A stretch of 64,000 bases of DNA from Clostridia bacterium. GTDB taxonomy: Bacteria; Bacillota; Clostridia; Oscillospirales; CAG-272. The notes beneath the pieces were generated by a model. That model was given only the letters and a program-made list of their open reading frames with translations, did no database searches and was not told where the DNA came from. The number at the start of each line of letters is the position of its first letter. Position 1 is the first letter of the stretch. The stretch spans positions 24,278 through 88,277 of the forward strand of contig JAGAPG010000030.1 of assembly GCA_017623355.1 (NCBI GenBank). Direction: 5' to 3'. The position numbers and the translations under genes were made by a program. Below, piece after piece: positions 31,091 to 46,742 of this stretch.

Positions 31091-32020
31091 ATGAAAAACA
31101 CATGGATTAAGCTTATGTGTCTTATGATCGCTTTGGTATGTATGTTCGTTCTTGCTTCCTGCGATAAGGAAGAGAATATCGACTTCGGTGATGACGAAGA
31201 AGAAACAACAACCAAGGAAGAAGAGGATACATCAACTAAAGAAGACAAACCCTCTGATGACGAGGAAAGCGAAACGTCCGAAAAGGATGACGAAACAAGT
31301 ACAAAAGAAGAGCCCGAATATGATTGCGATAACGGCAAGCATAAGTGGTCAAGATGGGAGTGGACAGACGCAACCTGTACAACTCCTGAAACAGGTAAGA
31401 GAGAGTGCGACCTCTGCGGAGAAAGAGATTCCAAGACAGAGGGAGAGGCTCCCGGACACCAATATCCCGATTCGTGGACAGCAGGAGTTCTTTCATCCGA
31501 AAGAGCTTGTGATGTTTGCGGTAACAAGGAAACAAAGGCTTGGACAGACGTAACAACCTCAGCAGTTGCTGAAAAGACAAACGGCGAGGCTTGGGGCTCT
31601 GCAGGTGTAACAACAGACGGTAAATGGTATGGCTACTCAGGCGACGCAGGCTTTACAGGCAGAGGCGGTGTTTTGGAGGTTACATACACATTCTCCAAGG
31701 TAACTATCATCGACCAGATCATAGTTGCAGGTAACGGCGGCGGTATGTCCTATAAGGTATATGTAGTAGACGTTAACTCTGAGGAAGAGGAAACTCTTAT
31801 AGGTGGCGGTGCGTTTACAGCATCTGCTCCCGAAGGATCAGATCTTGAAAAATACGGTAAGGAATCAGCTATTGTATTTGGAGTAAATCACTTGGCTGTT
31901 GAAAAGGTTATCGTAAGAACTGATGCATCAGGTAACGGTTCTTCGATGTGGGGTGAGGTAAGATTTGCTCAGAACCCTGAGCTTGCAGGTCAACCCGCAA
32001 CAGGCGCAACCGCAGAATAA
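31091..32020 (+). CDS. secreted lipoprotein: acidic linker, Cys-rich module, C-terminal beta-sandwich-like domain
   Basis: Signal peptide with lipobox LASC, an E/D/T/S-rich linker, a C...H...ATCT..G.....C..CG...GH module, and a GEVRF-type end. Confidence 0.7.
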   Translation: MKNTWIKLMCLMIALVCMFVLASCDKEENIDFGDDEEETTTKEEEDTSTKEDKPSDDEESETSEKDDETSTKEEPEYDCDNGKHKWSRWEWTDATCTTPETGKRECDLCGERDSKTEGEAPGHQYPDSWTAGVLSSERACDVCGNKETKAWTDVTTSAVAEKTNGEAWGSAGVTTDGKWYGYSGDAGFTGRGGVLEVTYTFSKVTIIDQIIVAGNGGGMSYKVYVVDVNSEEEETLIGGGAFTASAPEGSDLEKYGKESAIVFGVNHLAVEKVIVRTDASGNGSSMWGEVRFAQNPELAGQPATGATAE

Positions 32021-32035
32021 TAATTTGGAACAGTA

Positions 32036-32067
32036 AGTTCCCTCGGAACATACCGAGGGAACTTTTT
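32036..32067 (+). terminator. intrinsic terminator
   Basis: Stem AGTTCCCTCGG/CCGAGGGAACT followed by TTTT. Confidence 0.8.
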
Positions 32068-32106
32068 ATAAAACAAGCTTTAAACGGTAAAAAGAGAAGG
32101 TATTAT

Positions 32107-35100
32107 ATGAAAAAGATATTATCACTAATGTTGATACTTCTTGCTTTTATGCTCGTGTTCGCATCGTGCGATCAGGAGGAGGATATTGATTTTGGCAACG
32201 ATGAGAGTGTAACATCCAATGATGATGAAACCTCGACCAAAGAGCCTGAAGAAACCTCTACCGATGACGAGACCTCTACAAAAGACGAGCCTGCAGGAGA
32301 CGAAACCTCTACGGATGAAAATACGGAGACGGTAGATCCCGAAAACTGTATTCACGAGTATGAGGAAGAATCAAGGACGGAGCCTAACTGTACAGAGGCG
32401 GGCGTGAAAGTAGAAAAATGTAAATATTGCGGAACAACAAGAGAAAGATCTATTGCTAAGCTCGGACACAATATGGGCACTCCTGAGGTTGTAGAGCCTA
32501 CCTGTAACAAGGCAGGATACACGGAGCGCGCTTGCACACGACCTGGATGTACATATGCTACGCAGACCAATCCTACTGTAGCAACGGGCAAGCACGCATA
32601 TTCAAAAAAATGGAGACGTAGCATAGAGCCGACATATTTTTGCCCCGGCGAGGAATATGTATATTGCACAAACGTAGGCTGTGACTCAAGACAAACAAGA
32701 GAGGTCGCTCCGCTTTATGATTTCTTTACGCTTGATATTGGCGCAAATAACGTTGATATTGACGGAGAGGACTACATAAATATTGCTAAATACGGCGTTT
32801 CGGAAGCAACGTCTTATTACAGAAAAACACTTCCTAAGCATCTTTTTGACGGCGACACGTCGTCTTATTGGAGCCCGGATACTCTCGTTGACGGAATAAG
32901 CTACACAGGCGATTACGCCGTACAGACTTTTGTTAAGGACTTTGAGATCAAGGAAATAAGATTATATGTTCCAAACTATCATGCTTGGGGACTTGAAGGA
33001 GTTAACGTTGAGTATCTCGTTCAGGCAGAGGACGAGGACGGTACTTGGATAACTCTCGGCACTGTAAACGATAAGGATTCCGGTGATGATACCAGTCAAA
33101 ATGTAACTGTCGTATTGTCGCTTGAGGATGCTATCGTTACAGATAAGATAAAAATTACGGTTACAGAAGCGTCAAGATATACTCCCGGTAAGATCTACGA
33201 GGTAGAGGTGTACGCTAAGGCTACTATCGGAGATAAGGATATCGTTGACGAGGAAGGTAACGTTGTCGGAACTGAAAAAGCTCCGATGATAAACAGAGTA
33301 GTAAAGAATATTGCAGGCACTGCAAGCGTAAGCGTAAGCGGTAAATACAACGATTACGGCGGAGGTGCTGCTGAGCTCGTTGACGGAAAAGATGGCACGA
33401 GCTGGATGACCAATGCAAGACTTTGGGACGATACAAGATTTGAGGTTGATTTTGGAGAAAACACCTTCAGAGAGATAAGCTCTATTTCGTTCGTTGCCGA
33501 TAAGTGTGTTGGCGAGAAATTCTATATCTATTATTACGGCGTGGCAAGCGGCTGGAACGGAGATAGCCTTGGCTGGAGAGCTATAGATGTAGATCCTAAT
33601 TCCGATAATCAATACTATGAAATAACAGAGGATTTTGAGGGAACTTATACCGTTACTTTTGAAAATCCCATAATTACAACAAAAATTCGTATAGAGGCTG
33701 AGGATTATAAGGCGGCTGACGATCTTACATCAGATATATCCACCGTTCCGCCTACTATGACACAGTTCTCATTCGTATATAAGGAAACAACTCTTGGCTC
33801 GTATGCTACGACCAAGGAGGAAACTGACGAAGAGGGCAACACCGTAACAGTTAACCTTGAAGCGGTTGATATTTTCAAAAATCAGCTTGCAGCTTTGACC
33901 GTTGCAGATGAGGAAAAAACACATAACATCGAAAAGGTGGAATGGCTTGAGGGACCGAGAACAATTGCTACATTCGAGTATACTACCGTTCAGTATATTG
34001 CATATATCAGATTTATATTTGCTAACGTTGACGGCAGAGATTTCTCGCTTCAGTATTGGGACGAGGAAAATGAATGTTGGGTAGAGTATATGATTATTGA
34101 AGGCGGTAAGAGCTCTGAAATAATCGACCTTGGCGTTAAGTGGAGAAAGTTCAGATTTGAGCTTATTTCCGAGCCGCAGTATTGGCTCTCGTTCGTTTAT
34201 GAGATTACGCCTTATACAATAGTAGAACAAACAACCGAAAATCTTGTAATCGAGAGCTGTGAGCATAAGGCTGCTAACAGCACATTGACAGAAAAGATAG
34301 CTCCTACCTGTGAAACCGCAGGATATTCTATCCTTCATTGTAAGTCGAAGGGCTGCACATACACTTGGAAAACAGATGCTCTTGATGCACTTGGACATAA
34401 CTATGTTGCAGATCAGTCAACCGCAGTTGCGGCAACCGCTGAACAAAACGGAACAGTTACAGCTAAGTGCTCAAAATGCTCGGACGAAAAAACCGTTACA
34501 ACAGAATATGCAACAGAGCTTGGTATTCTTAAGGCTCCCGAAATAACAACATATCTATATAACGCTCCCGGAGCTTGGAGTATGACATTTGACGACAGTA
34601 ACTATGTTGAAACATATAACTGGGTAGTTCCGCAGCTTCAAAAATACGGTTTCAAGGCTACTACGGTTATGACAATTGGTATGGCGGATTCGTTAGTTCC
34701 GTTATGGTCACAGTATTTCGCAACGGGCACATTTGACCTTGGATCACACTCCTATAACCATACCGGTATTTACAGTGGCGGTCTTCAGGAAGACAGCATA
34801 ATGTACGAGGTAAACGAGGCTCATTACAGATTCATGAATATGTTCCCGGGTCAGCAGGTTCTTGGATTTGCAACACCTAACGGAACGACGAGCAACTCTA
34901 CTGCTGTATTCGTATGCGATATTATGGCAGCAGGAAGAAACGGCGGTAACCTTGGAGCTTGGATAGATCCGGATGATCTTACATCAAGAGAGGCTTGGGG
35001 TAACCTTAATTCTTATATCTCAAAAACAGAGCAAACAGAAGGTAAGTATGAGTTTGTAAAGGCTTCCGAGGTTAAGAAGAATTATGTATACGATGCAAGC

Positions 35101-35790
35101 TCAAACAGAATGGTTGATGCTGTTGTGGCTCAGCTTTCTGTAACAGGTACTTATGTTCGTGAGCTGGTTGATGATGCTAACTTTGATGGCACATACTACA
35201 ACGAGTTGAACGGAGATCCTATTTACAGATACGTTTGGGTAGAAAACGGATCATATAGTTATATTGATGGCGAATATGTATTCCAGGAAAACAACGATGG
35301 AGAATATATTCTTGCTCATACTGAAATTGGATCTTACGAGAAAGGTGTGAATGAGCTTCTTAACGGAAAATCGGGCTCTGATCACGGATATTGGACGGTG
35401 GAATGTCTCCACACGATCGGTTCAGGACCTATGTATTCTACATTTACATCTACTATATCAAAGTTTGAAATATTCAAGAAAACAGGTATTTGGGTAGGCT
35501 CTTATACTGAGGTTGTTCAGTATCTCAAGGAAAGTCAAAGAGCAAGCATAGAATTTTCTGCAACAGCAGATTCTATTTCGTTTAACCTTACTGACACGCT
35601 TGACAATTCTCACTTTGATCAAAAGCTTACTGTAAAGGTTGATATTCCCGATGAATGGACAGCTATAACCGTAATGCAAAACGGCGTCGAGATTGGCGTT
35701 GATGTTGAAAAGGATGTATTTATTGAGAACGGATATGCTTACATAAGCGTAGTTCCCGATTGCGGAGAGGTAGTTATCACCGCTAAATAA
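32107..35790 (+). CDS. large lipoprotein: Cys-rich modules, discoidin/F5-8-type-C-like domains, NodB-type polysaccharide deacetylase domain
   Basis: Lipobox FASC and an acidic DETSTK linker. Cys modules at about aa 80-170 and 713-800. DGDTSSYW and IYEVEVYA suggest carbohydrate-binding beta-sandwiches. NodB motifs are TFDDS (nt ~34580) and HSYNH. Confidence 0.7.
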   Translation: MKKILSLMLILLAFMLVFASCDQEEDIDFGNDESVTSNDDETSTKEPEETSTDDETSTKDEPAGDETSTDENTETVDPENCIHEYEEESRTEPNCTEAGVKVEKCKYCGTTRERSIAKLGHNMGTPEVVEPTCNKAGYTERACTRPGCTYATQTNPTVATGKHAYSKKWRRSIEPTYFCPGEEYVYCTNVGCDSRQTREVAPLYDFFTLDIGANNVDIDGEDYINIAKYGVSEATSYYRKTLPKHLFDGDTSSYWSPDTLVDGISYTGDYAVQTFVKDFEIKEIRLYVPNYHAWGLEGVNVEYLVQAEDEDGTWITLGTVNDKDSGDDTSQNVTVVLSLEDAIVTDKIKITVTEASRYTPGKIYEVEVYAKATIGDKDIVDEEGNVVGTEKAPMINRVVKNIAGTASVSVSGKYNDYGGGAAELVDGKDGTSWMTNARLWDDTRFEVDFGENTFREISSISFVADKCVGEKFYIYYYGVASGWNGDSLGWRAIDVDPNSDNQYYEITEDFEGTYTVTFENPIITTKIRIEAEDYKAADDLTSDISTVPPTMTQFSFVYKETTLGSYATTKEETDEEGNTVTVNLEAVDIFKNQLAALTVADEEKTHNIEKVEWLEGPRTIATFEYTTVQYIAYIRFIFANVDGRDFSLQYWDEENECWVEYMIIEGGKSSEIIDLGVKWRKFRFELISEPQYWLSFVYEITPYTIVEQTTENLVIESCEHKAANSTLTEKIAPTCETAGYSILHCKSKGCTYTWKTDALDALGHNYVADQSTAVAATAEQNGTVTAKCSKCSDEKTVTTEYATELGILKAPEITTYLYNAPGAWSMTFDDSNYVETYNWVVPQLQKYGFKATTVMTIGMADSLVPLWSQYFATGTFDLGSHSYNHTGIYSGGLQEDSIMYEVNEAHYRFMNMFPGQQVLGFATPNGTTSNSTAVFVCDIMAAGRNGGNLGAWIDPDDLTSREAWGNLNSYISKTEQTEGKYEFVKASEVKKNYVYDASSNRMVDAVVAQLSVTGTYVRELVDDANFDGTYYNELNGDPIYRYVWVENGSYSYIDGEYVFQENNDGEYILAHTEIGSYEKGVNELLNGKSGSDHGYWTVECLHTIGSGPMYSTFTSTISKFEIFKKTGIWVGSYTEVVQYLKESQRASIEFSATADSISFNLTDTLDNSHFDQKLTVKVDIPDEWTAITVMQNGVEIGVDVEKDVFIENGYAYISVVPDCGEVVITAK

Positions 35791-35800
35791 TGAGATATAA

Positions 35801-35831
35801 GCATAGCGAAAGCAATTTCGCTATGCTTTTT
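35801..35831 (+). terminator. intrinsic terminator
   Basis: Stem GCATAGCGAAA/TTTCGCTATGC, loop GCAA, then TTTTT. Confidence 0.85.
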
Positions 35832-36007: not shown

Positions 36008-36146
36008 ATCGGATAAGGAGCGCCACTCCTTATCAGCTATGTCTCTATCAAAGTGATCGCAGTCCATGATGCGTCACTGAAAAAAAGGAGGTAATAAAGA
36101 CTTTTTCGTATATCGTCGGTGTGTTTTGGCTGCCGAGCAAAAAGCG

Positions 36147-36256: not shown

Positions 36257-36285
36257 TTGAAAAAAATAACTCCGCGTGCTATAAT
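36257..36285 (+). promoter_or_regulatory. sigma-A type promoter (extended -10) for the MoxR/VWA module
   Basis: TTGAAA (36257-36262), 17-nt spacer, TGC-TATAAT (hexamer 36280-36285). ATG at 36344 with a GGAG RBS. Confidence 0.6.
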
Positions 36286-36343
36286 ATATTATATATTTAT
36301 AGCAAAAATAATAAATATAATTATTACTCAAAGGAGAAAAGGT

Positions 36344-39247
36344 ATGGAATTTAGCGAAGCTATGAAGCCATATAGAAAAAGACTTATAATCGAAGCTATT
36401 ATAAGAGCCGTTGCATTCGGAATGTTATTCGGAATGGCTGGCACATTGCTTACAACGGTTATTATGAAAATAGCGTTCAGCATTGAAAATACACTTTTAG
36501 TGATTATAGTGTCCGCATCTGTTGGTGTTGCGATTGCCGCAACGATTGGAACGATAACATATATTCGTCGTTTCAAGGTTAACACAAGAAAATTGGCAAA
36601 AAGAATTGACTCCCTTGGACTTGACGAGCGTGTTGTAACAATGGTCGAATACAGAAAAGACCGTTCTTACGTTGCAAAGGTTCAAAGAGAGGATACGATG
36701 CAACGCCTTTCAAAGCTTGATATGAAGAAGCAATTCAAGATCAGGCTCCCCAAAAAATCACTTATATCCTGCGGAGCAATGCTCCTTGCAATTGTTATCT
36801 TGCTTACTCCCTTGGTGCAGACACCGGCTGCTATTGCGGCAGAGTGGAGACAGCAGGAGGCTGACGAAGCGGTAGATGAGATCATTGCAGACATTCACAA
36901 GATGATAGACCAGGCTGAGTTTGAGGATGATGTTGACGACTACTACGTAACAAAGGATCTCTTTGATAAGCTCATTGAGCAAGAGGAAGAAAACTTTGAA
37001 AGCTTCAAGGAAGAGCTCAAGGATATGGTTACCGTAGAGGGTGAGAAGATAAAGAGGAGCTCGCTTGACAGATCTCAAAAGGAGGATCAGGCGAATGCTT
37101 TGAGAGATAGAGTAAACGAATACATTACAGTACAGATAATGATTCAAAATATCTATCTTATAATAAACTCATCCGACACACCTCAAGAATTTCAAGAGAT
37201 GCTCTTTAATGACTATGTATTCCCGCTTGAGGAAAGAATCGAGCTTATGGACGATGCCCGTGAAAAATACGAGGACATAAGAGAGACCAGAAAAGAGATC
37301 GAGGAGCTTATCAAAAAAGAGATGGAGATCCAACAGGAGATCATCGATAAGATAGACCAGGACAGCAGCGAGGAGCTTAAGGAAGAGCTTGAGAAGGTTG
37401 AAAATGAAACCATTCAAGATATTCTTGATGCTATCCAAAAGGAAGATAAGGCTGAAATCGAAAATGCTTTTGAGGATCTTGAGCAAAAGCTCGACCAAAT
37501 GGTAGACCAAAACACCAAGGAAGATATTATGCAAGAGATAGAGGATATGCAACAGCAGATCCAAGATGCTCTTGATAAGGTTGAAGAGGATTCGATCCTT
37601 AAGGATGCATTTGAAGATTTCAATCAAAACCTTGAGGATATTCAGGATAAGATCGAGCAGACTGAAACTGATGAAAACGGTCAGATAAGCGAGGATCAAA
37701 AGGAAGAAATTAAGGAAACGATTGATACCGAGCTTGAGGACTCCAAGAGTGATTTCAACGAGGTTATTGACTTCGAGCAGAAGCTTGAGGACACCGAAAT
37801 GGGTGAGCTTGCTGATGCTATTGAAAGCGGAGATAAGGAAAAGATCGATGAAGCTCTCGATAATATGAAGAATGATATTCTCGATACAGATGCTTCAAGC
37901 CAAGAGAGAGAAGATATGATGCAAGACATCGTAGATGTTCTTGATAAGGTTCTTGACAGTGTTCCCGAATCAAATGTAGAAGACTCACTTAAGGATGCTC
38001 TTGAGGATTTCAAGGAAAATCTTGAGGGCGCAATTCAAGAAAAGCAAGAGGGCTCCGATACAGATAAAACTATTGAAGACGCTTTCGATCAAGCTAAGGA
38101 CGATATCTCCGATGCACTTGACAAAATGGAATCTATTGAAAACGTTGGTGAGCAGATCACAGATGCGATGGACAAAGCAGAATCCGAGCTCGCTCCCTTT
38201 GAGAAGGAAACAGACGATGCGATTGATGATATGAAGCAAACCATCGAGGATTCCGACGCAAGCGAGGAAGAAAAGGATGAAATGAAGGATGTCGTAAGCG
38301 ATCTTGAAAATAAGCTCGAGGACATCTATAGCGATCCCACAACATCTGACGAGGAAAAGAAGGAGCAGGTTAACGAGGCTCTTACAGATGCAAACAACAA
38401 GCTCGACCAGATGACTCAGGAGCAAGATTCCGATAAATCCGAGGTAAACGATGCTATCAAGGATAACGAGGACAAAAAAGAAGAATCTGATAAAAATCAG
38501 GATATGTCCGATCTTGGTGATGCAATCGAGAAGGACGATAAGGACCAGGTAAGCGACTCCATCGAAGATATGAAGGATAAGATCCAAAACGCCGAGGGAG
38601 AGGAGCTTGATAAGATCCTTAACGATATGGCTCAGGATTTCAAGGACACTGCAGATTCGTTACCCGAGGATAACGAATTCAAGGAAGATTTCCAGCAGAC
38701 AGGTGAAAAGCTTGAGGATATCGCAAATTCCGATATGACCGATGAAGAAAAGAAGGAACAGGCAAGTGACGCACTTGATCAGTTCCAGCAAAATATGAAT
38801 AATAAGCTCGAAAACATGGAGAAAAACGAGCAAACAGCTGAAGATCTTAAAGAGAGCATAAACCAAGCTCAAAACCAGATAAACAATCCTAATCAAGATA
38901 AGCAAGAGCCGTCTGATTCCGAGCAGAATCAAGAAAATCAGGATCAAGAAAATCAAGATCAGGAGAATCAAGACAGCAAGCCCAGTGATCAGGATAAACC
39001 ACCGGAAGAAAATAAGCCTCAAGAACCATCTGAGGAGGTTACCGACGGTATGGATAAGGTTGAGATAAACGGTTCTGTGTATAATCCGGAAACGAATAGA
39101 AATGAATCTATTACATCTCAGATTACACAGGAATATATCGATCAGCAGAAGAATCTCTTGCTTGATCCGTCAAATAATTTGACGCCCGCGCAAAGAGAGG
39201 CAATTCAGCAAATGATCGCTCTTTATGAAGCTCAATTGGCAAAATAA
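36344..39247 (+). CDS. membrane-anchored giant acidic coiled-coil protein (DUF4175-like by eye)
   Basis: Three N-terminal hydrophobic segments, then ~800 aa dominated by D/E/K/Q with heptad-like character and diverged ~75-aa repeats (xDAIExxDKxxI...). The start was moved from 36119 because the promoter lies inside that extension. Confidence 0.65.
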   Translation: MEFSEAMKPYRKRLIIEAIIRAVAFGMLFGMAGTLLTTVIMKIAFSIENTLLVIIVSASVGVAIAATIGTITYIRRFKVNTRKLAKRIDSLGLDERVVTMVEYRKDRSYVAKVQREDTMQRLSKLDMKKQFKIRLPKKSLISCGAMLLAIVILLTPLVQTPAAIAAEWRQQEADEAVDEIIADIHKMIDQAEFEDDVDDYYVTKDLFDKLIEQEEENFESFKEELKDMVTVEGEKIKRSSLDRSQKEDQANALRDRVNEYITVQIMIQNIYLIINSSDTPQEFQEMLFNDYVFPLEERIELMDDAREKYEDIRETRKEIEELIKKEMEIQQEIIDKIDQDSSEELKEELEKVENETIQDILDAIQKEDKAEIENAFEDLEQKLDQMVDQNTKEDIMQEIEDMQQQIQDALDKVEEDSILKDAFEDFNQNLEDIQDKIEQTETDENGQISEDQKEEIKETIDTELEDSKSDFNEVIDFEQKLEDTEMGELADAIESGDKEKIDEALDNMKNDILDTDASSQEREDMMQDIVDVLDKVLDSVPESNVEDSLKDALEDFKENLEGAIQEKQEGSDTDKTIEDAFDQAKDDISDALDKMESIENVGEQITDAMDKAESELAPFEKETDDAIDDMKQTIEDSDASEEEKDEMKDVVSDLENKLEDIYSDPTTSDEEKKEQVNEALTDANNKLDQMTQEQDSDKSEVNDAIKDNEDKKEESDKNQDMSDLGDAIEKDDKDQVSDSIEDMKDKIQNAEGEELDKILNDMAQDFKDTADSLPEDNEFKEDFQQTGEKLEDIANSDMTDEEKKEQASDALDQFQQNMNNKLENMEKNEQTAEDLKESINQAQNQINNPNQDKQEPSDSEQNQENQDQENQDQENQDSKPSDQDKPPEENKPQEPSEEVTDGMDKVEINGSVYNPETNRNESITSQITQEYIDQQKNLLLDPSNNLTPAQREAIQQMIALYEAQLAK
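38930..38974 (+). repeat. 15-bp x 3 in-frame microrepeat (QENQD x3)
   Basis: CAAGAAAATCAGGAT / CAAGAAAATCAAGAT / CAGGAGAATCAAGAC. Confidence 0.8.
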
Positions 39248-39287
39248 ACACTAAAATAAAAATTTGATGATATACGGAGATAGAGAC

Positions 39288-40886
39288 ATGGCATTTTTTA
39301 ATAGAAACAAAGAAAAAGAACAAGATAAGAAGGCATCTGCCGCAGTTAAACCTGCGGCAGATGCCTCTGCGCTTAAAAAAGACGCAAAGGTAGACCCTAA
39401 AGCTGCTCCTAAAGCAGAGGAAAAGAAGCCTGAGGTTAAGGTAGATCCCAAGGCTGCTCCTAAAGCAGAAGAGAAGAAGCCTGATGTTAAGGTAGATCCC
39501 AAGGCTGCTCCTAAAGCAGAAGAGAAGAAGCCTGATGTTAAGGTAGATCCCAAGGCTGCTCCTAAAGCAGAAGAAAAGAAGCCTGATGTTAAGGTAGATC
39601 CCAAGGCTGCTCCTAAAGCAGAGGAAAAGAAGCCTGAGGTTAAGGTAGATCCCAAGGCTGCTCCTAAAGCAGAGGAAAAGAAGCCTGAGGTTAAGGTAGA
39701 CCCCAAGGCTCCACCTAAAGCAGAAGAAAAGAAACCCGAGAGAACCGCAGAGGAACTCAAGGTAGATGCAGAAACAGAGAAGGAGCTCAAGCTCTTCGCT
39801 GAAAAATGCGCTAAGATCTTTACTGAGGTTAAAAAGGATATGATCGGTCAGGAGGAGGTAGTCGAATCTACTATCGCAGCTATTATAGCAGGCGGTAACG
39901 TACTTCTTGAGGGCGCACCGGGACTTGGTAAAACACGTCTTGTAAGATCACTTGGTAAGGTGTTTGATCTTCCATTCTCACGTATTCAGTTCACACCTGA
40001 CTTGATGCCTGCCGACGTAACAGGTACTAACATAATTAATAAGGATGAAAACGGAAACTCTGTATTTGAGTTCCAAAAGGGTCCTATCTTCAGTAACATA
40101 GTTCTCGCGGACGAAATTAACCGTGCAACGCCAAAAACACAGGCAGCTTTGCTTGAGGCGATGCAGGAGCATAAGGTTACTGTAATGGGCGTAACAAGAC
40201 AAATGGATGAGCCGTTCTTCGTTCTTGCTACACAGAACCCGATCGAGCAAGACGGTACATATCCTCTTCCTGAAGCTCAGATGGACCGTTTTATGTTCAA
40301 GATCATAGTTCCGAACCCCTCGGCAGACGAGCTCGGACAAATCGTTAATATGACACAGAAAACAATGGACGAAACCGCGCAGGCAGCTTGTAACGGCGAG
40401 GAGCTTCTCCGTATGAGAGCTATCGCTAAGACAATTCCTGTTTCAAGTGAAGTTCTTAAATATGCGATGGTAATGATTGCGGCAACTCATCCTGACAGTG
40501 AGGTTGCTACAGAAACAACCGTAAGATTTATTCGTGCAGGAGCCAGCCCTCGTGCTGCTCAGGCGCTTATCACGGCTGCAAAGGTAAGAGCTCTTATCAA
40601 CGGCAGATACAACGTATCCTATGATGATATCAATACTCTTGCAATTCCTGTACTCCGTCACAGAATCAAGCTTGGCTTTGAGGCTGTAACTTCAAAGATG
40701 AACGCAGACGATGTTGTTAAGAGCCTTATTAAGGATCTTAATACAAAGGGCAAGGATATAGCAGACAAGCATGCTGAAGAAAAATTCAAGCAAGAGGTTG
40801 CTATGGACAAGGCCGCTATGAAGGCTGCTATGAAGGCTGAAAAGGAAAAGAGCAAGTCAGATAAAAAGAAAAATTCAGATTGGTAA
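39288..40886 (+). CDS. MoxR-family AAA+ ATPase with an N-terminal tandem-repeat extension and a Lys-rich C-tail
   Basis: Walker A LLEGAPGLGKT, and Walker B/MoxR signature VLADEINRATPKTQAALLEAMQE. ATG 39288 is preferred; 39264 is possible. Confidence 0.85.
   Translation: MAFFNRNKEKEQDKKASAAVKPAADASALKKDAKVDPKAAPKAEEKKPEVKVDPKAAPKAEEKKPDVKVDPKAAPKAEEKKPDVKVDPKAAPKAEEKKPDVKVDPKAAPKAEEKKPEVKVDPKAAPKAEEKKPEVKVDPKAPPKAEEKKPERTAEELKVDAETEKELKLFAEKCAKIFTEVKKDMIGQEEVVESTIAAIIAGGNVLLEGAPGLGKTRLVRSLGKVFDLPFSRIQFTPDLMPADVTGTNIINKDENGNSVFEFQKGPIFSNIVLADEINRATPKTQAALLEAMQEHKVTVMGVTRQMDEPFFVLATQNPIEQDGTYPLPEAQMDRFMFKIIVPNPSADELGQIVNMTQKTMDETAQAACNGEELLRMRAIAKTIPVSSEVLKYAMVMIAATHPDSEVATETTVRFIRAGASPRAAQALITAAKVRALINGRYNVSYDDINTLAIPVLRHRIKLGFEAVTSKMNADDVVKSLIKDLNTKGKDIADKHAEEKFKQEVAMDKAAMKAAMKAEKEKSKSDKKKNSDW
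39387..39743 (+). repeat. 51-bp x 7 in-frame tandem repeat (KVDPKAAPKAEEKKP[ED]V)
   Basis: Seven near-identical 17-codon units, read directly from the sequence. The differences are mostly synonymous or E/D changes. Confidence 0.95.
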
Positions 40887-40901: not shown

Positions 40902-41801
40902 ATGAAACGTAAAATATTAGACGGCGACTTTTTGGACCGTCTGGACGCTGCCGCATTGTTACTCAAAAATCCGATGACAGGCTACTTCGGCGGAAGCCGA
41001 AAGGCACGCTCATACGGAAGCACGGTAGAGTTTGCCGACTTCCGCGAGTATTTTCCGGGAGATGATATCAGACGTATCGACTGGAACGTATACGCGCGTT
41101 TTGAAAAGTACTTTATAAAGCTTTTCACGGATGAAAGACAGATGCACAATCATATTATGATAGACTGCTCTGCATCAATGAAATGTGGCCGTCCTGAAAA
41201 AGCGGCAGCCGCGCTCAGAATAGCGGCAGCCTTCGGATATCTTTCGGTAACGGCTATGGACCGAGTTTCCTTCAAGATGCTTAAAGGCAATAAGGCGGAG
41301 GATATCGGCTTCACGGTATATAATAAGGATTCGTTTTACAGAGCCGCTCAAATTCTTGAAACAACAGAATTTGAGGGAGAAACTGATCTTGAAAAGACCG
41401 TGGTAGGTCTTGAGCAACCGGGATATGACGACGGTCTTACGATAATAATTTCCGACTTTTTGACGGAAAGCAACTGGAAAAAGATGCTCGACTTCTTGGT
41501 ATATAAGCGCAGAGAGGTTGTATTTATACAGGTACTCTCACCGGATGAGCTTTATCCGGGCTTTGACGGAAGAGTTCACATGGTGGACTCCGAGGCTGTT
41601 GGCTTTGACGATCCTAAGAATATGAGAGTCAGAGTTACGAGAAAGCTCGTTGAAGCATATCAAAGAGCGTTTGACGAATATGAGCAGGAGCTTATAGATT
41701 TTTGCGCCTCAAGAGACGCGACTTTCTTTACAGTTTCATCAGATGATCCGATAGAGAAAGTAATTTTTGGAAAGGGATACGAAACGGAATTGATCAAATG
41801 A
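40902..41801 (+). CDS. DUF58 domain protein (MoxR-associated)
   Basis: GGSRKARSYGSTVEFADFREYFPGDDIRRIDWNVYAR matches the DUF58 signature. A VWA-like IDCSASM follows. Confidence 0.85.
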   Translation: MKRKILDGDFLDRLDAAALLLKNPMTGYFGGSRKARSYGSTVEFADFREYFPGDDIRRIDWNVYARFEKYFIKLFTDERQMHNHIMIDCSASMKCGRPEKAAAALRIAAAFGYLSVTAMDRVSFKMLKGNKAEDIGFTVYNKDSFYRAAQILETTEFEGETDLEKTVVGLEQPGYDDGLTIIISDFLTESNWKKMLDFLVYKRREVVFIQVLSPDELYPGFDGRVHMVDSEAVGFDDPKNMRVRVTRKLVEAYQRAFDEYEQELIDFCASRDATFFTVSSDDPIEKVIFGKGYETELIK

Positions 41802-43789
41802 GTCTTGATTTCACAACTTATTGGGGATTGCTTGGATTATTGGCTATTCCGATACTTTTGCTCATATATTTTTTAAAGCAGAAGTATGTAGAAAAACCCG
41901 TATCCAGCACATTTATATGGAAAAAGAGTCTTAAATATGTTAAGACAAAAATTCCAATCAATATTATAGTTTCGCTCTTGCTTATTTTGCAAATATTATC
42001 AGTTATAGTTGCGAGTCTTGCACTTTGTCGTCCGACGCTTGTTGCGTTCAGCTCTGACGAGACGGTAATAGTAATAGACTCATCGGCAAGTATGCTTGCT
42101 AAAAACGATCAAGGCAAAACGCGCTTTGAGCTCGCTGTAGAGCAAGCGAAGAAGGATGCTGAAAAAGCGGGTCCAAACAGTAAGATAACTGTAATAACGG
42201 CAGGCGAGAAAGCGAATACAGTAGTATACAGAAGCGAGGATAAATCGCAGATAGTAAATGCTCTTGACAAGATCAAGTGCGAATATGGAAATGCTGATTT
42301 TGAAGAGGCAAAGCTTCTTGTTGCCGATGTTCAAAGTCAGAATAAGGAAACATCGGTAAAATATTATACAGACCAAACCTATGAAAGCGTAAATGGCTTT
42401 GAATACATAGATTTTTCAAAGGATAACGACTCCAATATTGCAATAACATCGTTAGAAGATGGAATGATAAAGGATGATTATGTGTTTACACTTGAGGTGT
42501 CAAACTACGGAAAGGCACTTGAAAAGGTAAAGATCAAGGCTGTTATAAACGACGGCAAGAAGGATCTTTGGTTTGAAGATACCTATAGCTTCGGCGAGTC
42601 GGAAACAAGAATGATATACGTTCGACCTAATATTTCTGCACTTGAGGAAGGTACAGGTCTTAAAATAGACTCCTTTGAGGAATATAAGAATGCGAAATTT
42701 GAAATTGTGGTAGATGACGCTATCGCAGAGGATAATGTAAGCTCGATATATCCGGAGGAGAAAAAAGATGTAAAAATACTTTACGTTAGTGAATACGTAC
42801 AGTATATAGAGGGAACAGAGAATACTGATGCTCCCGTAGTAAACGATAAGTTTATATGGATGCTCAGAATATTTGGATATCTTGGATATACGGTAGATAC
42901 TACATCCGATGTATACAAGAGCATAAATGATGTTCCGGACCTTGAGGGATATGATATTTATATCTTTGAGGGCGAAAGTAATATGCCGGAGATACTCCCC
43001 ACAGACGGCGCGGTATGGTTTATAAATCCAAAAACCAATCCCGTCGGAACTGATATCGAGATAGGCGACGAGCTTGAAGAGATGTTCGCATATCCCGTAA
43101 TTACTCCCGGCGACACAAATCCTGACACAGATACCTATGAAATTATAACAAACGGTATCAAGATGGACGGACAGTGGTATGTAGGTAAATATAAGAATAC
43201 GCCTGCAAATCTTCCCGATAAATACGAGGCAGTTTTCAAATGCGGAAATAATGCGCCTCTTATTATTGCGGGAATAGAAGAAGAAAACAATACCAGAGTA
43301 GTTGTTTTCACGTTTGATATTTATAACTCCAACCTTATAATGCAATTTGTGCTTTCGCCGGTTCTTTTCGATAATCTCGTTAAGTTCTCAGCGCCTGATT
43401 CTCTTGTATCAAGAGATTTTGTTGTAGGAGATGAGCTTGAGTTTAAGGTTCCCGTAGGCGGAACTGCGCTTGAGGTTCGTGATCCCAGCGATCAAATAAT
43501 ATATTCTACGGCAAACGCTTCGGAATATGTTCAAAAGCTCGATATGGTTGGCGATTATAAGATCACGGTAACATACGGAGAAAATGGAACGAAATCGTTT
43601 ATGGTTCCTGTTCACATCTCCGCAGAGGAAAGCGATATAAATATGAATGCGTATACAGAGGTGGTTCAATCTCCTCCCGCTACAGCTCCTATCGACCGTA
43701 GCCCGATAGAAATTTGGCCGTATCTTGTAGCACTCTTGCTTATCCTCTTGATAGTAGAATGGGGGGTATATTACAAAGATGAATTTTAA
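41798..43789 (+). CDS. BatA_N double-TM plus VWA domain membrane protein with a C-terminal TM
   Basis: The N-terminus LLGLLAIPILLLIYFLKQK...SSTFIWKK...LLILQILSVIVASLALCRP matches the aerotolerance-regulator N-domain pattern. MIDAS-like VIDSSAS. ATGA overlap with the DUF58 gene. Confidence 0.75.
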   Translation: MSLDFTTYWGLLGLLAIPILLLIYFLKQKYVEKPVSSTFIWKKSLKYVKTKIPINIIVSLLLILQILSVIVASLALCRPTLVAFSSDETVIVIDSSASMLAKNDQGKTRFELAVEQAKKDAEKAGPNSKITVITAGEKANTVVYRSEDKSQIVNALDKIKCEYGNADFEEAKLLVADVQSQNKETSVKYYTDQTYESVNGFEYIDFSKDNDSNIAITSLEDGMIKDDYVFTLEVSNYGKALEKVKIKAVINDGKKDLWFEDTYSFGESETRMIYVRPNISALEEGTGLKIDSFEEYKNAKFEIVVDDAIAEDNVSSIYPEEKKDVKILYVSEYVQYIEGTENTDAPVVNDKFIWMLRIFGYLGYTVDTTSDVYKSINDVPDLEGYDIYIFEGESNMPEILPTDGAVWFINPKTNPVGTDIEIGDELEEMFAYPVITPGDTNPDTDTYEIITNGIKMDGQWYVGKYKNTPANLPDKYEAVFKCGNNAPLIIAGIEEENNTRVVVFTFDIYNSNLIMQFVLSPVLFDNLVKFSAPDSLVSRDFVVGDELEFKVPVGGTALEVRDPSDQIIYSTANASEYVQKLDMVGDYKITVTYGENGTKSFMVPVHISAEESDINMNAYTEVVQSPPATAPIDRSPIEIWPYLVALLLILLIVEWGVYYKDEF

Positions 43790-46691
43790 TTTGGAAATAG
43801 CCCGTCCATGGATGTTCCTGGTAGCGATACCGTTTATAATCTTGGCGATAATTCCGTTTTTAAGACTTCGTAAGGGAAGAAAGCTTGCTGTTAAAAGAAT
43901 AGTTCCTCTTATTATAACGGTTTTGCTTATTGCTCTTATAGCAACTCTTCTTGCTGATATAACGATAGTTGAAACGACTGCAGCACCCGAGGAAACGGAT
44001 GTAGTTATTCTTGTTGATATGTCAGAGAGTAATGCTGCTATGAAGGATGAAATGAACGAATATATAAAATCGATCCATGAAGCGGCTGATGAGCATACCA
44101 AAATAGGTCTTATAGTATTTGCAGATAATACATATAAGATAAGCGATATAGAAAAGCCTGAGATCAAAAACGATTATCTTGATTTTGAGGACGGAGAAAT
44201 AGAGAAATCAAATACTGACATTGAGGAGGCTATTACCAAATCGGTAGAGCTCTTTAAGAATCAGTATGCTAATAAGCGCGTGCTTCTTATCTCTGACGGA
44301 AGAAACACGACGCAAACGAACCCTTGGGGAGCAGCAAGAACTCTTTATCAAAAGGGAATCACTCTTGATGCAAAATATTTTGATATAGTTGATTCCAATA
44401 ATAAAGAGGTTCAGATAACCTCACTTGTAGCTGAAACAAAGAATGATTCATCTAAAGAGGTTAATATAAGAGTTGAATTTATGAGCACCAAGGATGCCAT
44501 AGGCGACGTGCTTTTGTACGAGGTTAAGAAAACCGAGGACGGAAAGACCGAGGAAAAGCTCATAAAGAAGTTTGAAGATGTAAGATTTGAGGAAAACGAT
44601 ACCCAGGCTCTTACTTATGACGGATACGTTGCAAGCGGAGCAGGCATACATTCAATGTATGCAATCGTTGATCTTGCCGATGATACAATAGAGCAAAACA
44701 ATAAGCTGTATTCGTGGTTCCAAATACCCGGAGAAGCAAAAATGCTTATTATCGACGGTGATGACGGATCAAAGTTTACTCAAGCTGACAGAATTGCCGA
44801 AATGATTAAGCAAGAGGGCTATGAGGTAGATGTTCTTGAAACCTCAGACTTTCCTGAAACGATGGAGGAGCTTCTTGAATATGATCAAATAGCTCTTATG
44901 AATATCGATTTTACTGAGCTTCCCGCTAATGCAACGGATCATATCGAAAGATATGTTTCGGAGCTCGGCAGAGGACTTTTCTACAGCGCAGGCGGACATA
45001 GCTATGCTAACTCTGAATTTGCCGAAAACCCGATAGCAAGCATTTTGCCTATCGAGCTTAAAATTGAGGTAATTAAGGAAAAGGTAGCTACGGTTATAGC
45101 GGTTGACCTTTCTTCATCAATGGGTCAAAGCGTTGGTGAAACAAAGGCTAATGGCGAACAAAAGACACGTTACGATATGGTCCTTGAGGGAGTTATTGCT
45201 TGTATAGATCAAATGAACCCCGAGGATTACGTAGGCGTGGTAGTATTCTGGGGTAATGCTCCAAGCGATCCTGTAGTTCCTCTTACAGAGGTTGCAGAAA
45301 AGGAATGGATCAAGGAGCAGATAGAAACTAAGTTTGAAAGCTATTTCTATAAGCACGACTCTCAGGGAAATAGACTTACCGGCGGAAATCCTAAGGATGC
45401 AAACGGATATACGATAGGAGTACAGGGTACTAACTATACAAACGGTATCAATGCGGGTAAGAAATTGCTTTCCGAAACAGATGCAGAGCTTCGTCAGTTT
45501 ATATTTATTTCAGACGGTGAGCCTGCTGACTTGGATTCAGGTTACGATACAACTATTAAGGCGATGTATCGTTCCGGTATTTTGACATCAACCATCTGTA
45601 TAGGAAACGATTCATCTAATGCTATAAATGAGCTTAGACTTTTGGCGGATTACGGCGGAGGATCATTCAGATCTGTTACAACGACTCTTGATCTTAGCGG
45701 ATCACTTTTTGAATATGTAGAAAGTGTCGTTGGAGATTATGTAAACGAAAAGGAATTTCAACCGCATATTCAATCAAACGAATCGGCAATATTCCAAAAT
45801 GTATCGGTAGTTAATGCTCTTCCGACGCTTAACGGATATTACGGTACGACAGTAAAGGAAGGCGCTATGATGGTAATTTCTGCGGACGATAAGCACCGTC
45901 CGATAGTAGCTGAATGGCAGCCGACCGATACCAAGGGATATGTTACTGTATATATGAGTGACCTTAGTGAGCAAACTGACTGGTCGGAAAATTGGTATGA
46001 TGATCCCAATACAGCTATTCTTATAAAAAATATCGTAATGAACTCCTTTGTTGCGCTTGAAAAGGCAGTAGACAAGAGTGGACTTGAGGTAGAATCAGAA
46101 AGAACAGGCGATAAAACGACCGTTACAGTTGAAATGGTCAAGAGATTGCGCTATATAGATGACGCAAAGCAGGAAAAGCTTATTCTCGAATATATCGCTC
46201 CTGACGGAACAGTTCATACGACTGATGAAGCCGGAGATGAGCTTGAGCTTGCAGCCGTAGCTAATAAGAAATACAGAATAACTATAGATACTCCCGATCA
46301 GACGGGAATGTATAAAATAACAGTTAAGCTTGTCACAAACGACGGTAAAAATCAGCTTATTGATATAGCTCAATCTGCAGTCGTTGGCTTCTACGAGGAT
46401 GAATACGACGTGTTCAACCTTGAGAAGAATGAGAGCATAGGCGAGGATTTGCTTGTAAACCTTGCAAGAACAGGCGGAGGACAAATGATGGATGACGCAG
46501 AAGCCTTCTACGCCAACTTCAAAAAGCCTGACTTTGTTGAATATAAGCATTCACCTGTATATTGGCTTATTGCAGCTATAATTCTTCTTTTTGTGCTTGG
46601 AATAGTATTCCGCCATGTAAAGACGAGAAAGCAAAAGCAAGCAGAAGAAATGACGGACGAGGAGCAGATTCTTTCAATGCGCGGACGTTAA
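43779..46691 (+). CDS. large membrane protein with a BatA_N-like N-terminus, two VWA domains, a central amidotransferase-like region and a C-terminal TM
   Basis: MIDAS motifs VDMSES and VDLSSS, a central MLIIDGDDG block, and a C-terminal YWLIAAIILLFVLGIVF. 11-nt overlap with the upstream gene. Confidence 0.75.
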   Translation: MNFNLEIARPWMFLVAIPFIILAIIPFLRLRKGRKLAVKRIVPLIITVLLIALIATLLADITIVETTAAPEETDVVILVDMSESNAAMKDEMNEYIKSIHEAADEHTKIGLIVFADNTYKISDIEKPEIKNDYLDFEDGEIEKSNTDIEEAITKSVELFKNQYANKRVLLISDGRNTTQTNPWGAARTLYQKGITLDAKYFDIVDSNNKEVQITSLVAETKNDSSKEVNIRVEFMSTKDAIGDVLLYEVKKTEDGKTEEKLIKKFEDVRFEENDTQALTYDGYVASGAGIHSMYAIVDLADDTIEQNNKLYSWFQIPGEAKMLIIDGDDGSKFTQADRIAEMIKQEGYEVDVLETSDFPETMEELLEYDQIALMNIDFTELPANATDHIERYVSELGRGLFYSAGGHSYANSEFAENPIASILPIELKIEVIKEKVATVIAVDLSSSMGQSVGETKANGEQKTRYDMVLEGVIACIDQMNPEDYVGVVVFWGNAPSDPVVPLTEVAEKEWIKEQIETKFESYFYKHDSQGNRLTGGNPKDANGYTIGVQGTNYTNGINAGKKLLSETDAELRQFIFISDGEPADLDSGYDTTIKAMYRSGILTSTICIGNDSSNAINELRLLADYGGGSFRSVTTTLDLSGSLFEYVESVVGDYVNEKEFQPHIQSNESAIFQNVSVVNALPTLNGYYGTTVKEGAMMVISADDKHRPIVAEWQPTDTKGYVTVYMSDLSEQTDWSENWYDDPNTAILIKNIVMNSFVALEKAVDKSGLEVESERTGDKTTVTVEMVKRLRYIDDAKQEKLILEYIAPDGTVHTTDEAGDELELAAVANKKYRITIDTPDQTGMYKITVKLVTNDGKNQLIDIAQSAVVGFYEDEYDVFNLEKNESIGEDLLVNLARTGGGQMMDDAEAFYANFKKPDFVEYKHSPVYWLIAAIILLFVLGIVFRHVKTRKQKQAEEMTDEEQILSMRGR

Positions 46692-46710: not shown

Positions 46711-46742
46711 AAAAAGCAGAGATTTAAAAATCTCTGCTTTTT
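46711..46742. terminator. bidirectional intrinsic terminator
   Basis: Stem GCAGAGAT/ATCTCTGC with flanking A-run and T-run. Confidence 0.8.

Follow-up and report, generated by a model that had tools for sequence, protein, structure and literature searches.

A contig of a Clostridia bacterium (GenBank assembly GCA_017623355.1, contig JAGAPG010000030.1, positions 24,278 to 88,277 of the forward strand; this whole stretch of 64,000 nucleotides (nt) is the window of the present analysis) carries at 36344-39247 on the plus strand a gene for a membrane-anchored acidic protein of 967 amino acids (aa). The protein belongs to an unnamed Clostridial family of anchor proteins with three transmembrane (TM) segments, of which it represents an enlarged form specific to its lineage. 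The architecture of this family consists of a TM1-TM2-basic loop-TM3 anchor, a variable, net-acidic ectodomain and a short conserved C-terminal tail. The gene is under purifying selection and stands first in an operon with genes for a MoxR AAA+ ATPase, a DUF58 protein and two VWA proteins. The identity of the protein and its genomic context are put forward with considerable confidence; on balance we lean slightly towards the view that it serves a MoxR/VWA envelope complex as a polyanionic stalk subunit outside the cytoplasm, and the mechanistic part of that view, developed below, is tentative and more doubtful.

Among bacterial gene clusters without a mechanism, few are as widespread as the MoxR-DUF58-VWA ("Bat-like") operons. 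To this cluster gut Clostridia add an obligate fifth partner (58 of 60 loci) that lies outside all Pfam and NCBIfam models, and this partner shares its architecture, its operon partners and a C-tail motif with DUF4175 proteins of the distant phylum Gemmatimonadota. In one clade the partner has acquired a polyanionic helical ectodomain that is huge and under constraint.

The anchor family and its two forms

The open reading frame (ORF) is intact, with 967 codons and the stop included in its coordinates. ATG 36344 is the right start because the homolog N-termini MDFNEAMKPY and MDFKDLVKPF align at M1 and AAAGGAG lies 7 nt upstream; an alternative GTG start at 36119 gives a longer ORF that is mechanically possible only. 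The gene and its membrane and tail features are the following.

36330..36336, plus strand: ribosome-binding site AAAGGAG, 7 nt before ATG 36344, read from the sequence
36344..39247, plus strand: coding sequence for the anchor/stalk protein (967 aa), its start fixed by the N-termini of homologs
36383..36562, plus strand: TM1 (aa 14-43) and TM2 (aa 50-73), joined on the outside by a short loop (aa 44-49) to form a helical hairpin, according to hydropathy, AlphaFold2 and family charge statistics
36563..36751, plus strand: basic loop (aa 74-136), predicted cytoplasmic, with the most conserved motif of the family
36752..36814, plus strand: TM3 (aa 137-157), from hydropathy and AlphaFold2
39074..39244, plus strand: conserved C-terminal tail (aa 911-967), ending ...LTPAQREAIQQMIALYEAQLAK

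Word-indexed homolog searches were weak, the full protein, swamped by low-complexity words, giving one match and the N-domain alignment 12; workable were an exhaustive search with a profile hidden Markov model (HMM) and a scan of GTDB species genomes. The HMM of the N-terminal 170 aa retrieved 1,432 cluster representatives at E ≤ 1e-3 (716 at E ≤ 1e-10). Family members have a median length of 354 aa, most of them falling between 320 and 390 aa. From the scan of one genome per GTDB species 262 relatives emerged, and the 80 retrieved are all Clostridia/Bacillota, nearly all of them metagenome-assembled genomes (MAGs) from the gut. The nearest relative, L004, found in a MAG from roe-deer colon, reaches 90% identity in the N-domain; in a 33-sequence alignment of this domain, identities to the window sequence range from 25 to 55%, with profile matches at E 1e-20 and below. 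No Pfam or NCBIfam model matches the window protein (NCBIfam searched to E ≤ 0.1). One partial homolog, P0003, has a precomputed weak match to PF28006 (HpsJ), and the literature on "HpsJ" yielded nothing usable.

Two forms of the family can be distinguished. In the short forms, TM3 is followed by a Flg_new_2 (InlB B-repeat-like) β-domain (73 of 83 members) and then by an acidic Pro/Gly-rich linker (P+G about 20%) that leads to the tail. In the long forms (at least 600 aa, up to 2,465 aa in L026), this middle part is replaced by acidic helical sequence, and a neighbour-joining tree of the N-domain shows them to be monophyletic (30 long forms plus one truncated sequence); one clade has thus swapped the β-domain and linker for acidic helical-bundle repeats that run to hundreds or thousands of residues. 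Short-form members, for example P0028 (362 aa) and the protein of the cultured Pumilibacter intestinalis (L080), share with the window protein the 3-TM N-domain, the tail, the acidity and the operon, but have the β-domain and Pro/Gly linker where the window protein has about 690 aa of helical repeats, and their MoxR partner lacks the N-terminal extension found with the long forms. All 81 ectodomains analysed are net negative (median D+E 25.6%, K+R 7.9%), so that acidity is conserved family-wide although the ectodomain sequence is not. At the upper end, four proteins of 2,085-2,465 aa (L021, L026, L029, L030) have the same anchor and tail, and stalk length varies about 7-fold in the family. In a syntenic locus with 49% N-domain identity (L002, 2643-5485) the anchor gene is split into ORFs of 226 and 721 aa overlapping by 4 nt, which is either a frameshift, possibly marking a pseudogene, or an assembly error.

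The anchor of the window protein contains three hydrophobic segments by hydropathy (about aa 13-43, 50-73 and 137-157), as the original prediction, made from the DNA letters, had described. The loop between TM2 and TM3 bears the motif R87-x-D89-x-x-G92-L93-x-E95-R96-x-x-T99-M100 ... S108 ... A111 ... Q114-R115-x-D117 in invariant or near-invariant columns, and the window protein carries the family form of it, R-x-D-x-x-G-L-x-E-R-x-x-T-M ... Q-R-x-D. The Lys/Arg clusters noted earlier before TM1 and between TM2 and TM3 are indeed present, with four K/R before TM1 and 19 K/R vs 8 D/E in the 63-residue loop; the first 43 residues past TM3 hold 2 K/R vs 14 D/E. The same distribution is seen across 83 family members, where K+R exceeds D+E at the N-terminus in 80 (means 4.0 vs 1.3), in the TM2-TM3 loop in 69 (13.2 vs 10.1) and in the first 40 aa past TM3 in only 7 (2.2 vs 8.5). 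By the positive-inside rule, these statistics support the earlier placement of the acidic part outside the membrane, and the N-terminus and the conserved loop are predicted to be cytoplasmic and the acidic part extracytoplasmic.

The tail is modelled by AlphaFold2 as a β-hairpin (911-922) followed by two helices, and an HMM built on long-form tails matches it at the right position (7.4 bits, domain E 2.9e-4). Tails of long and short forms are homologous (hhalign probability 92.8%, E 4e-7), the short-form consensus being ...NQIIDGxTxY...LPxxLRxxIExYFxxL. The IDGxT element, near-invariant at the start of the short-form tail, was considered as an integrin-ligand-like motif for metal ion-dependent adhesion sites (MIDAS) and was dropped, as the long forms lose the Asp (INGSVY in the window protein).

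Comparison with the L004 ortholog gave a ratio of nonsynonymous to synonymous substitution rates (dN/dS) of 0.076 for the whole gene and 0.061 for aa 166-850, and segment identities that are highest in the tail (93%), followed by the N-domain (90%), aa 341-850 (81%) and the disordered linker (64%). The whole-gene ratio and the segment identities indicate a constrained protein rather than a drifting low-complexity sequence.

The acidic ectodomain

The region between TM3 and the tail is resolved into the following features.

36815..38893, plus strand: acidic ectodomain (aa 158-850) made of about 24 helices, each 9-57 residues long, and predicted to lie outside the cytoplasm, from composition, periodicity and AlphaFold2
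37406..37663, plus strand: repeat module copy 1 (aa 355-440), ILDAIQKEDKAEIENAFEDLEQKL...LKDAFEDFNQNLED, from Smith-Waterman scores against shuffles
37793..38053, plus strand: repeat module copy 2 (aa 484-570), LADAIESGDKEKIDEALDNMKNDI...LKDALEDFKENLEG, from Smith-Waterman scores against shuffles
38498..38758, plus strand: repeat module copy 3 (aa 719-805), LGDAIEKDDKDQVSDSIEDMKDKI...FKEDFQQTGEKLED, with positional orthologs in other long forms
38306..38899, plus strand: compact helical-bundle domain (aa 655-852), from AlphaFold2 of the segment alone
38894..39076, plus strand: disordered Q/E/N/D/P-rich linker (aa 851-911), AlphaFold2 local confidence (pLDDT) 27-34

The composition of aa 166-967 (E 16.7%, D 15.2%, Q 9.1%, K 8.7%; D+E 32%; net charge -174) agrees with the acidic region of about 800 residues, rich in D, E, K and Q, that had been recognized from the translation. 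It had also been remarked that Cys and Trp are missing after the membrane segments; this is correct for Cys, whose sole copy, C143, lies inside TM3, and incorrect for Trp, since W168 stands just after TM3, the rest of the ectodomain being free of both.

The description of this region as almost pure coiled coil found no support. An amphipathic periodicity of 3.5-3.6 is significant locally only, at aa 558-670 and 754-838 (z 5-7); over the rod as a whole no periodicity rises above shuffles and no long-range heptad register is found, and the core-hydrophobic content is merely 14-25% across much of its length. The AlphaFold2 model of the whole protein, based on a 12-sequence alignment (mean pLDDT 71.8, predicted template modelling score (pTM) 0.38), breaks into about 30 separate helices of 4-57 residues joined by short loops, with helices only from TM3 to residue 850. 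Modelled alone, aa 655-852 give a compact intramolecular bundle in which two long helices flank four shorter ones (pLDDT 92.0, pTM 0.82). A canonical extended two-stranded coiled coil was discarded on these grounds (no long heptad register, about 30 breaks, the bundle at aa 655-852); from the models, the ectodomain looks like a string of segmented acidic intramolecular helical bundles. Foldseek against the PDB gave no match at E ≤ 1e-3 for either the whole model or the model of aa 655-852. The top neighbours, although not significant, were helical-bundle proteins (the vinculin, α-catenin and talin rods, and designed bundles), which fits a string of bundles; their TM-scores to the window models reach at most 0.4, and sequence similarity is absent.

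Three diverged copies of one module had been quoted from the translation, beginning at aa 360, 489 and 724. Their pairwise Smith-Waterman scores of 105-135, as compared with 48-54 ± 8 in composition-matched shuffles (z = 7.3-11.5), establish the repeats as significant, with a unit of about 85 aa rather than the about 75 aa first estimated. This module (LxDAIExGDKxxI..ALDxMK ... LKDAxExFxxNLE) recurs in distant long forms, where the last copy has a positional ortholog. The QENQD microrepeat, likewise read correctly, is a 15-bp tandem repeat of 3.1 units at DNA positions 38928-38973, inside the disordered linker. On the minus strand, several antisense ORFs of 105-200 aa, rich in Leu, Ile and Phe, overlap the acidic rod (36758-39022); they are mirror-image artefacts of the GAA/GAT-rich coding sequence, not genes.

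Operon and synteny

The anchor gene is followed by the genes for MoxR, DUF58, a BatA-type VWA protein and a second VWA protein, the MoxR gene starting 17-41 nt downstream, its true start being probably ATG 39288 (MAFFNRNK...).

35799..35828, plus strand: terminator-like hairpin (13-bp stem, T-rich tail) with T-run, following the deacetylase gene and bounding the operon on its upstream side
36257..36285, plus strand: best sigma-70-like promoter match, TTGAAA-17-TATAAT with TG extended -10 (11/12), about 58 nt upstream of the ATG; a consensus match only
39264..40886, plus strand: MoxR AAA+ ATPase (AAA_3) with a low-complexity N-terminal extension of about 170 aa and no TM, from Pfam and hydropathy
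40902..41801, plus strand: DUF58 protein, VWA-like, DCSAS motif, no TM, from Pfam and hydropathy
41798..43789, plus strand: BatA_N + VWA membrane protein (663 aa), two N-terminal TMs and one C-terminal, MIDAS DSSAS, from Pfam and hydropathy
43779..46691, plus strand: VWA + GATase1-like membrane protein (970 aa), two N-terminal TMs and one C-terminal, MIDAS DMSES and DLSSS, from Pfam and hydropathy
46711..46742, plus strand: terminator-like hairpin closing the five-gene operon, from the hairpin scan

The total number of sigma-70-like matches in the region is no higher than in shuffles. Both VWA proteins have intact DxSxS MIDAS motifs and the same two-plus-one TM topology. The synteny count covers the 60 loci in which 1.5 kb or more of DNA is available past the anchor gene. 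In 53 of them the gene order of the window recurs, with a same-strand MoxR gene downstream, and in 58 MoxR and/or VWA genes follow directly on the same strand, the exceptions being the genome locus L053 and the phage contig L001; the link to VWA proteins contained in the original prediction is thereby strongly supported. In five loci (L056, L068, L069, L075, L077) VWA genes or DUF58 come directly after the anchor gene and MoxR was not detected in between, so the link to the VWA proteins persists without MoxR. For a BatA-type protein of Borrelia it was shown experimentally that the VWA domain faces the periplasm (PMC5700661); taken with the predicted outside position of the stalk, this outward orientation leads to the prediction that stalk and VWA domains share a compartment.

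The MoxR genes differ between the two forms of the family. An N-terminal extension of 40-426 aa is present in all 23 long-form loci, as compared with about 7 aa in the short-form loci (38 loci, one outlier; Mann-Whitney p 1e-10), and the association of long stalk and MoxR extension is confounded by phylogeny. The long-form extensions are A/P/K/E-rich, often begin MG(L/I)F(N/D)KK and have net charges from -46 to +8. In the window, the extension (39264-39790) contains a tandem repeat with a 51-bp unit (39387-39740; 6.9 units, 95% identity), which encodes seven copies of KVDPKAAPKAEEKKPEV.

Upstream of the operon (31091-35790) lie two lipoprotein-like genes, of 309 and 1,227 aa, the larger with F5/8 type C and polysaccharide deacetylase domains; both proteins have an acidic Ser/Thr/Asp/Glu-rich linker after a Cys lipobox-like signal. 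These genes are syntenic with the anchor gene in its closest relatives only (L002, L004-L008, L012, L014). A further family member, P0001 (713 aa, 27% identity, 3-TM domain and tail complete), is encoded at 4494-6635 on L001 (ENA ERZ28633380 scaffold_1056), a phage contig with genes for a holin, Sipho_tail, DNA ligase, RNase H and a Ro-like RNA-binding protein. Four genes of this contig contain in-frame TAG codons, the tail gene alone 12, and no gene ends in TAG; for this reason L001 looks like an amber-recoded phage.

Proposed role, alternatives and known systems

In the favoured reading, the window protein would be a structural subunit of a membrane complex. Its conserved cytoplasmic loop would dock MoxR and/or DUF58 and so couple the anchor protein to them, since no other conserved surface of it would be accessible to these two soluble proteins. 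The polyanionic stalk and the C-terminal tail would lie beside the two VWA ectodomains, where Asp and Glu side chains of the stalk might serve as MIDAS ligands, or the stalk might act as a spacer into or through the cell wall. MoxR could assemble or remodel the complex, by analogy with other MoxR-VWA pairs, which a passage in PMC8926400 (citing Snider & Houry 2006 and Tsai et al. 2020) describes as assembly/remodelling chaperones. A bolder version, very improbable in our estimate, would be a trans-membrane machine, in which a MoxR ring, tethered by its own N-extension, acts via the invariant loop of the anchor and shifts the states of the giant stalk, whose ectodomain can reach about 2,300 residues, and of the MIDAS-bearing VWA domains at the cell surface, amounting to ATP-driven surface remodelling in Gram-positive gut anaerobes, with DUF4175 proteins doing likewise in other phyla. 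If this were true, Bat/MoxR-VWA operons would have a common structural logic. Three parts lend themselves to testing, namely the invariant loop on the cytoplasmic side, the tail and the conserved helical module, and a cultured short-form carrier is at hand in Pumilibacter intestinalis (L080).

Several points weigh against the favoured reading. Every functional step in it is drawn from sequence and genomic context, and the topology is predicted from the positive-inside rule. The tail of the window protein (LTPAQREAIQQMIALYEAQL) is a degenerate version of the family motif, detected by the long-form tail HMM only; the short-form tail HMM fails to detect it. With the N-domain of DUF4175 proteins there is a colinear but weak alignment (116 columns; hhalign E 0.011, probability 3.7%). 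P0001 has no MoxR or VWA genes nearby on L001, and the genome locus L053 lacks them too, so that a family protein can exist outside the operon. Finally, long stalk and MoxR extension are limited to one clade and may go back to a single event.

An unlikely explanation, in essence the one offered in the original prediction, is that the protein is a generic polyanionic Ca2+/Mg2+ store or wall spacer, making no specific contact with MIDAS or MoxR; a part in cation binding or spacing is plausible in itself. The net charge of -174, the D+E content of 32% and the conservation of acidity across a family that does not conserve its sequence would suit such a role, as would a sub-threshold Ani s 5-like cation-binding helical domain in the long form P0027 (25.3 vs 29.3 bits). 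However, the strong purifying selection on the rod (dN/dS 0.061) and the positionally conserved modules (LxDAIExGDKxxI...LKDAxExF) in distant long forms exceed what charge alone would need, conservation peaks in the cytoplasmic loop and the C-tail instead of the acidic region, and none of the metal- or cation-binding domain models in Pfam matches the window protein or its fragments. Quite improbable is an operon-independent surface protein, engaged in phage interaction, exclusion or adhesion, whose place beside the MoxR genes would be a matter of chance. This could account for P0001 on its phage contig, for weak holin-like matches on the TM hairpin and for an ectodomain so variable (320-2,465 aa) that it resembles surface proteins under diversifying pressure; yet the adjacency is kept in 58 of 60 loci across 28-90% identity, VWA genes still follow where MoxR is missing (L056, L068, L069, L077), no phage family in PHROGs matches the window protein, and the dN/dS of 0.08 speaks against diversifying selection between close relatives. 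Hardly credible is a reversed topology with the acidic domain in the cytoplasm as client or regulator of MoxR. The occurrence of the MoxR N-extension in 23 of 23 long-form loci (p 1e-10) would find an explanation there, but the positive-inside statistics of the 83 sequences point the opposite way, the extensions are not charge-complementary (net -46 to +8), and the co-occurrence, confined to one clade, may be a single event.

A more serious candidate, although a doubtful one, is that the protein is a true, highly diverged member of DUF4175/TIGR02302 that shares a common ancestor with that family and does the same job in MoxR-BatA operons. The original prediction had likened the protein to this family and proposed an HMM search against it. 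No match to PF13779 (gathering threshold 27.3 bits) was obtained for the full protein, the N-domain, two module segments or the tail, even at E ≤ 10, and the TIGR02302 cut-off was not reached, no NCBIfam family matching at E ≤ 0.1. Among the short-form relatives, 18 of 83 give weak, sub-threshold N-terminal matches to PF13779 (best 16.5 bits, E 0.002), the colinearity of which favours membership, as does the colinear alignment of the N-domain profiles; on the other hand, TM-rich regions draw unspecific matches, such as Phage_holin_3_6 in 19 of 83 relatives, and the hhalign probability for the N-domains is low. A further argument for kinship is found at the C-terminus, where Clostridial tails match a 46-sequence profile of DUF4175 tails over 27 columns (hhalign probability 86.6%, E 4.4e-6); when one DUF4175-like sequence took the place of the profile, the result was not significant, although the expected positions were picked. 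The two tail motifs read (V/L)P-x-x-(Y/F/L)-(R/K)-x-x-(V/I)-(D/E)-x-Y-(F/Y)-x-x-L for DUF4175 and LPeeLreIExYfxxL for the Clostridial family. PF13779 finds neither nine short-form tails nor the tail of the DUF4175-like protein of Gemmatirosa kalamazoonensis described below, which means either that it does not model the shared tail or that the tail match is filtered out.

Against membership, the central β-rich domain of DUF4175 (profile positions ~167-331, which hold the best-scoring stretch in 7 of 8 DUF4175 positive controls) is absent from the window protein by AlphaFold2 and HMM, and the repeat module has no profile similarity to the DUF4175 helical region (hhalign probability <1%), so that the supposed echo of DUF4175 in the pattern xAxExGDxExI has to be abandoned. 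What remains of the comparison is a distant resemblance in anchor, operon and family tail, not membership. It can be suggested, by analogy, that the window protein acts in the manner of the DUF4175-type partners in MoxR operons and perhaps descends from them, without being a demonstrable member of that family.

The DUF4175 counterpart was located through the MoxR gene closest to that of the window in a plasmid collection. On plasmid 1 of Gemmatirosa kalamazoonensis, a megaplasmid (L085, 10946-22049), DUF4159, MoxR, DUF58 and BatA/VWA genes are followed by the gene for a 1,268-aa DUF4175-like protein, which scores 26.0 bits against DUF4175, just below the threshold; its metagenomic relatives, used as a positive control, pass the Pfam threshold in 8 of 8 cases (36-54 bits) and end ...VPxxYRxLVDEYFxxL. 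A tblastn search with the Gemmatirosa protein against plasmids returned the self-match only, and no DUF4175 match was found among the neighbouring ORFs scanned at a Sinorhizobium MoxR locus (MoxR-DUF58-BatA_N/DUF4159). In the DUF4175 loci (L086-L165) BatA/VWA lies upstream in 53 of 53 and MoxR in 33 of 34, DUF58 being associated in 43 of 45, and in Gemmatimonadota the DUF4175 protein is the almost obligate fourth gene of the MoxR-DUF58-BatA/VWA operon. In the literature searched, the one appearance of DUF4175 was an incidental label for a domain of A. baumannii AdvA (PMC7481262).

As in the window protein, DUF4175 (PF13779)/TIGR02302 proteins combine a TM-TM-loop-TM anchor with a long low-complexity, largely helical ectodomain, and in the loci analysed they keep the same MoxR, DUF58 and BatA/VWA partners as the Clostridial family. 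The ectodomain of the Gemmatirosa protein is Q/G/S/A/R-rich, in contrast to the D/E-rich helical bundles of the window protein, and the DUF4175 gene comes fourth, after BatA/VWA, in Gemmatimonadota, whereas the window gene comes first. The described Bat operons have BatC/D/E (TPR, BatD, SH3) as partners, and we know of no 3-TM acidic stalk protein among them. The Bat-type operons of Bacteroidota and Spirochaetes nevertheless share with the window the core of MoxR (AAA_3), DUF58 and a BatA_N-anchored VWA protein with MIDAS motifs, and the phenotypes reported for them concern envelope or stress tolerance (PMC3557215, PMC5700661).

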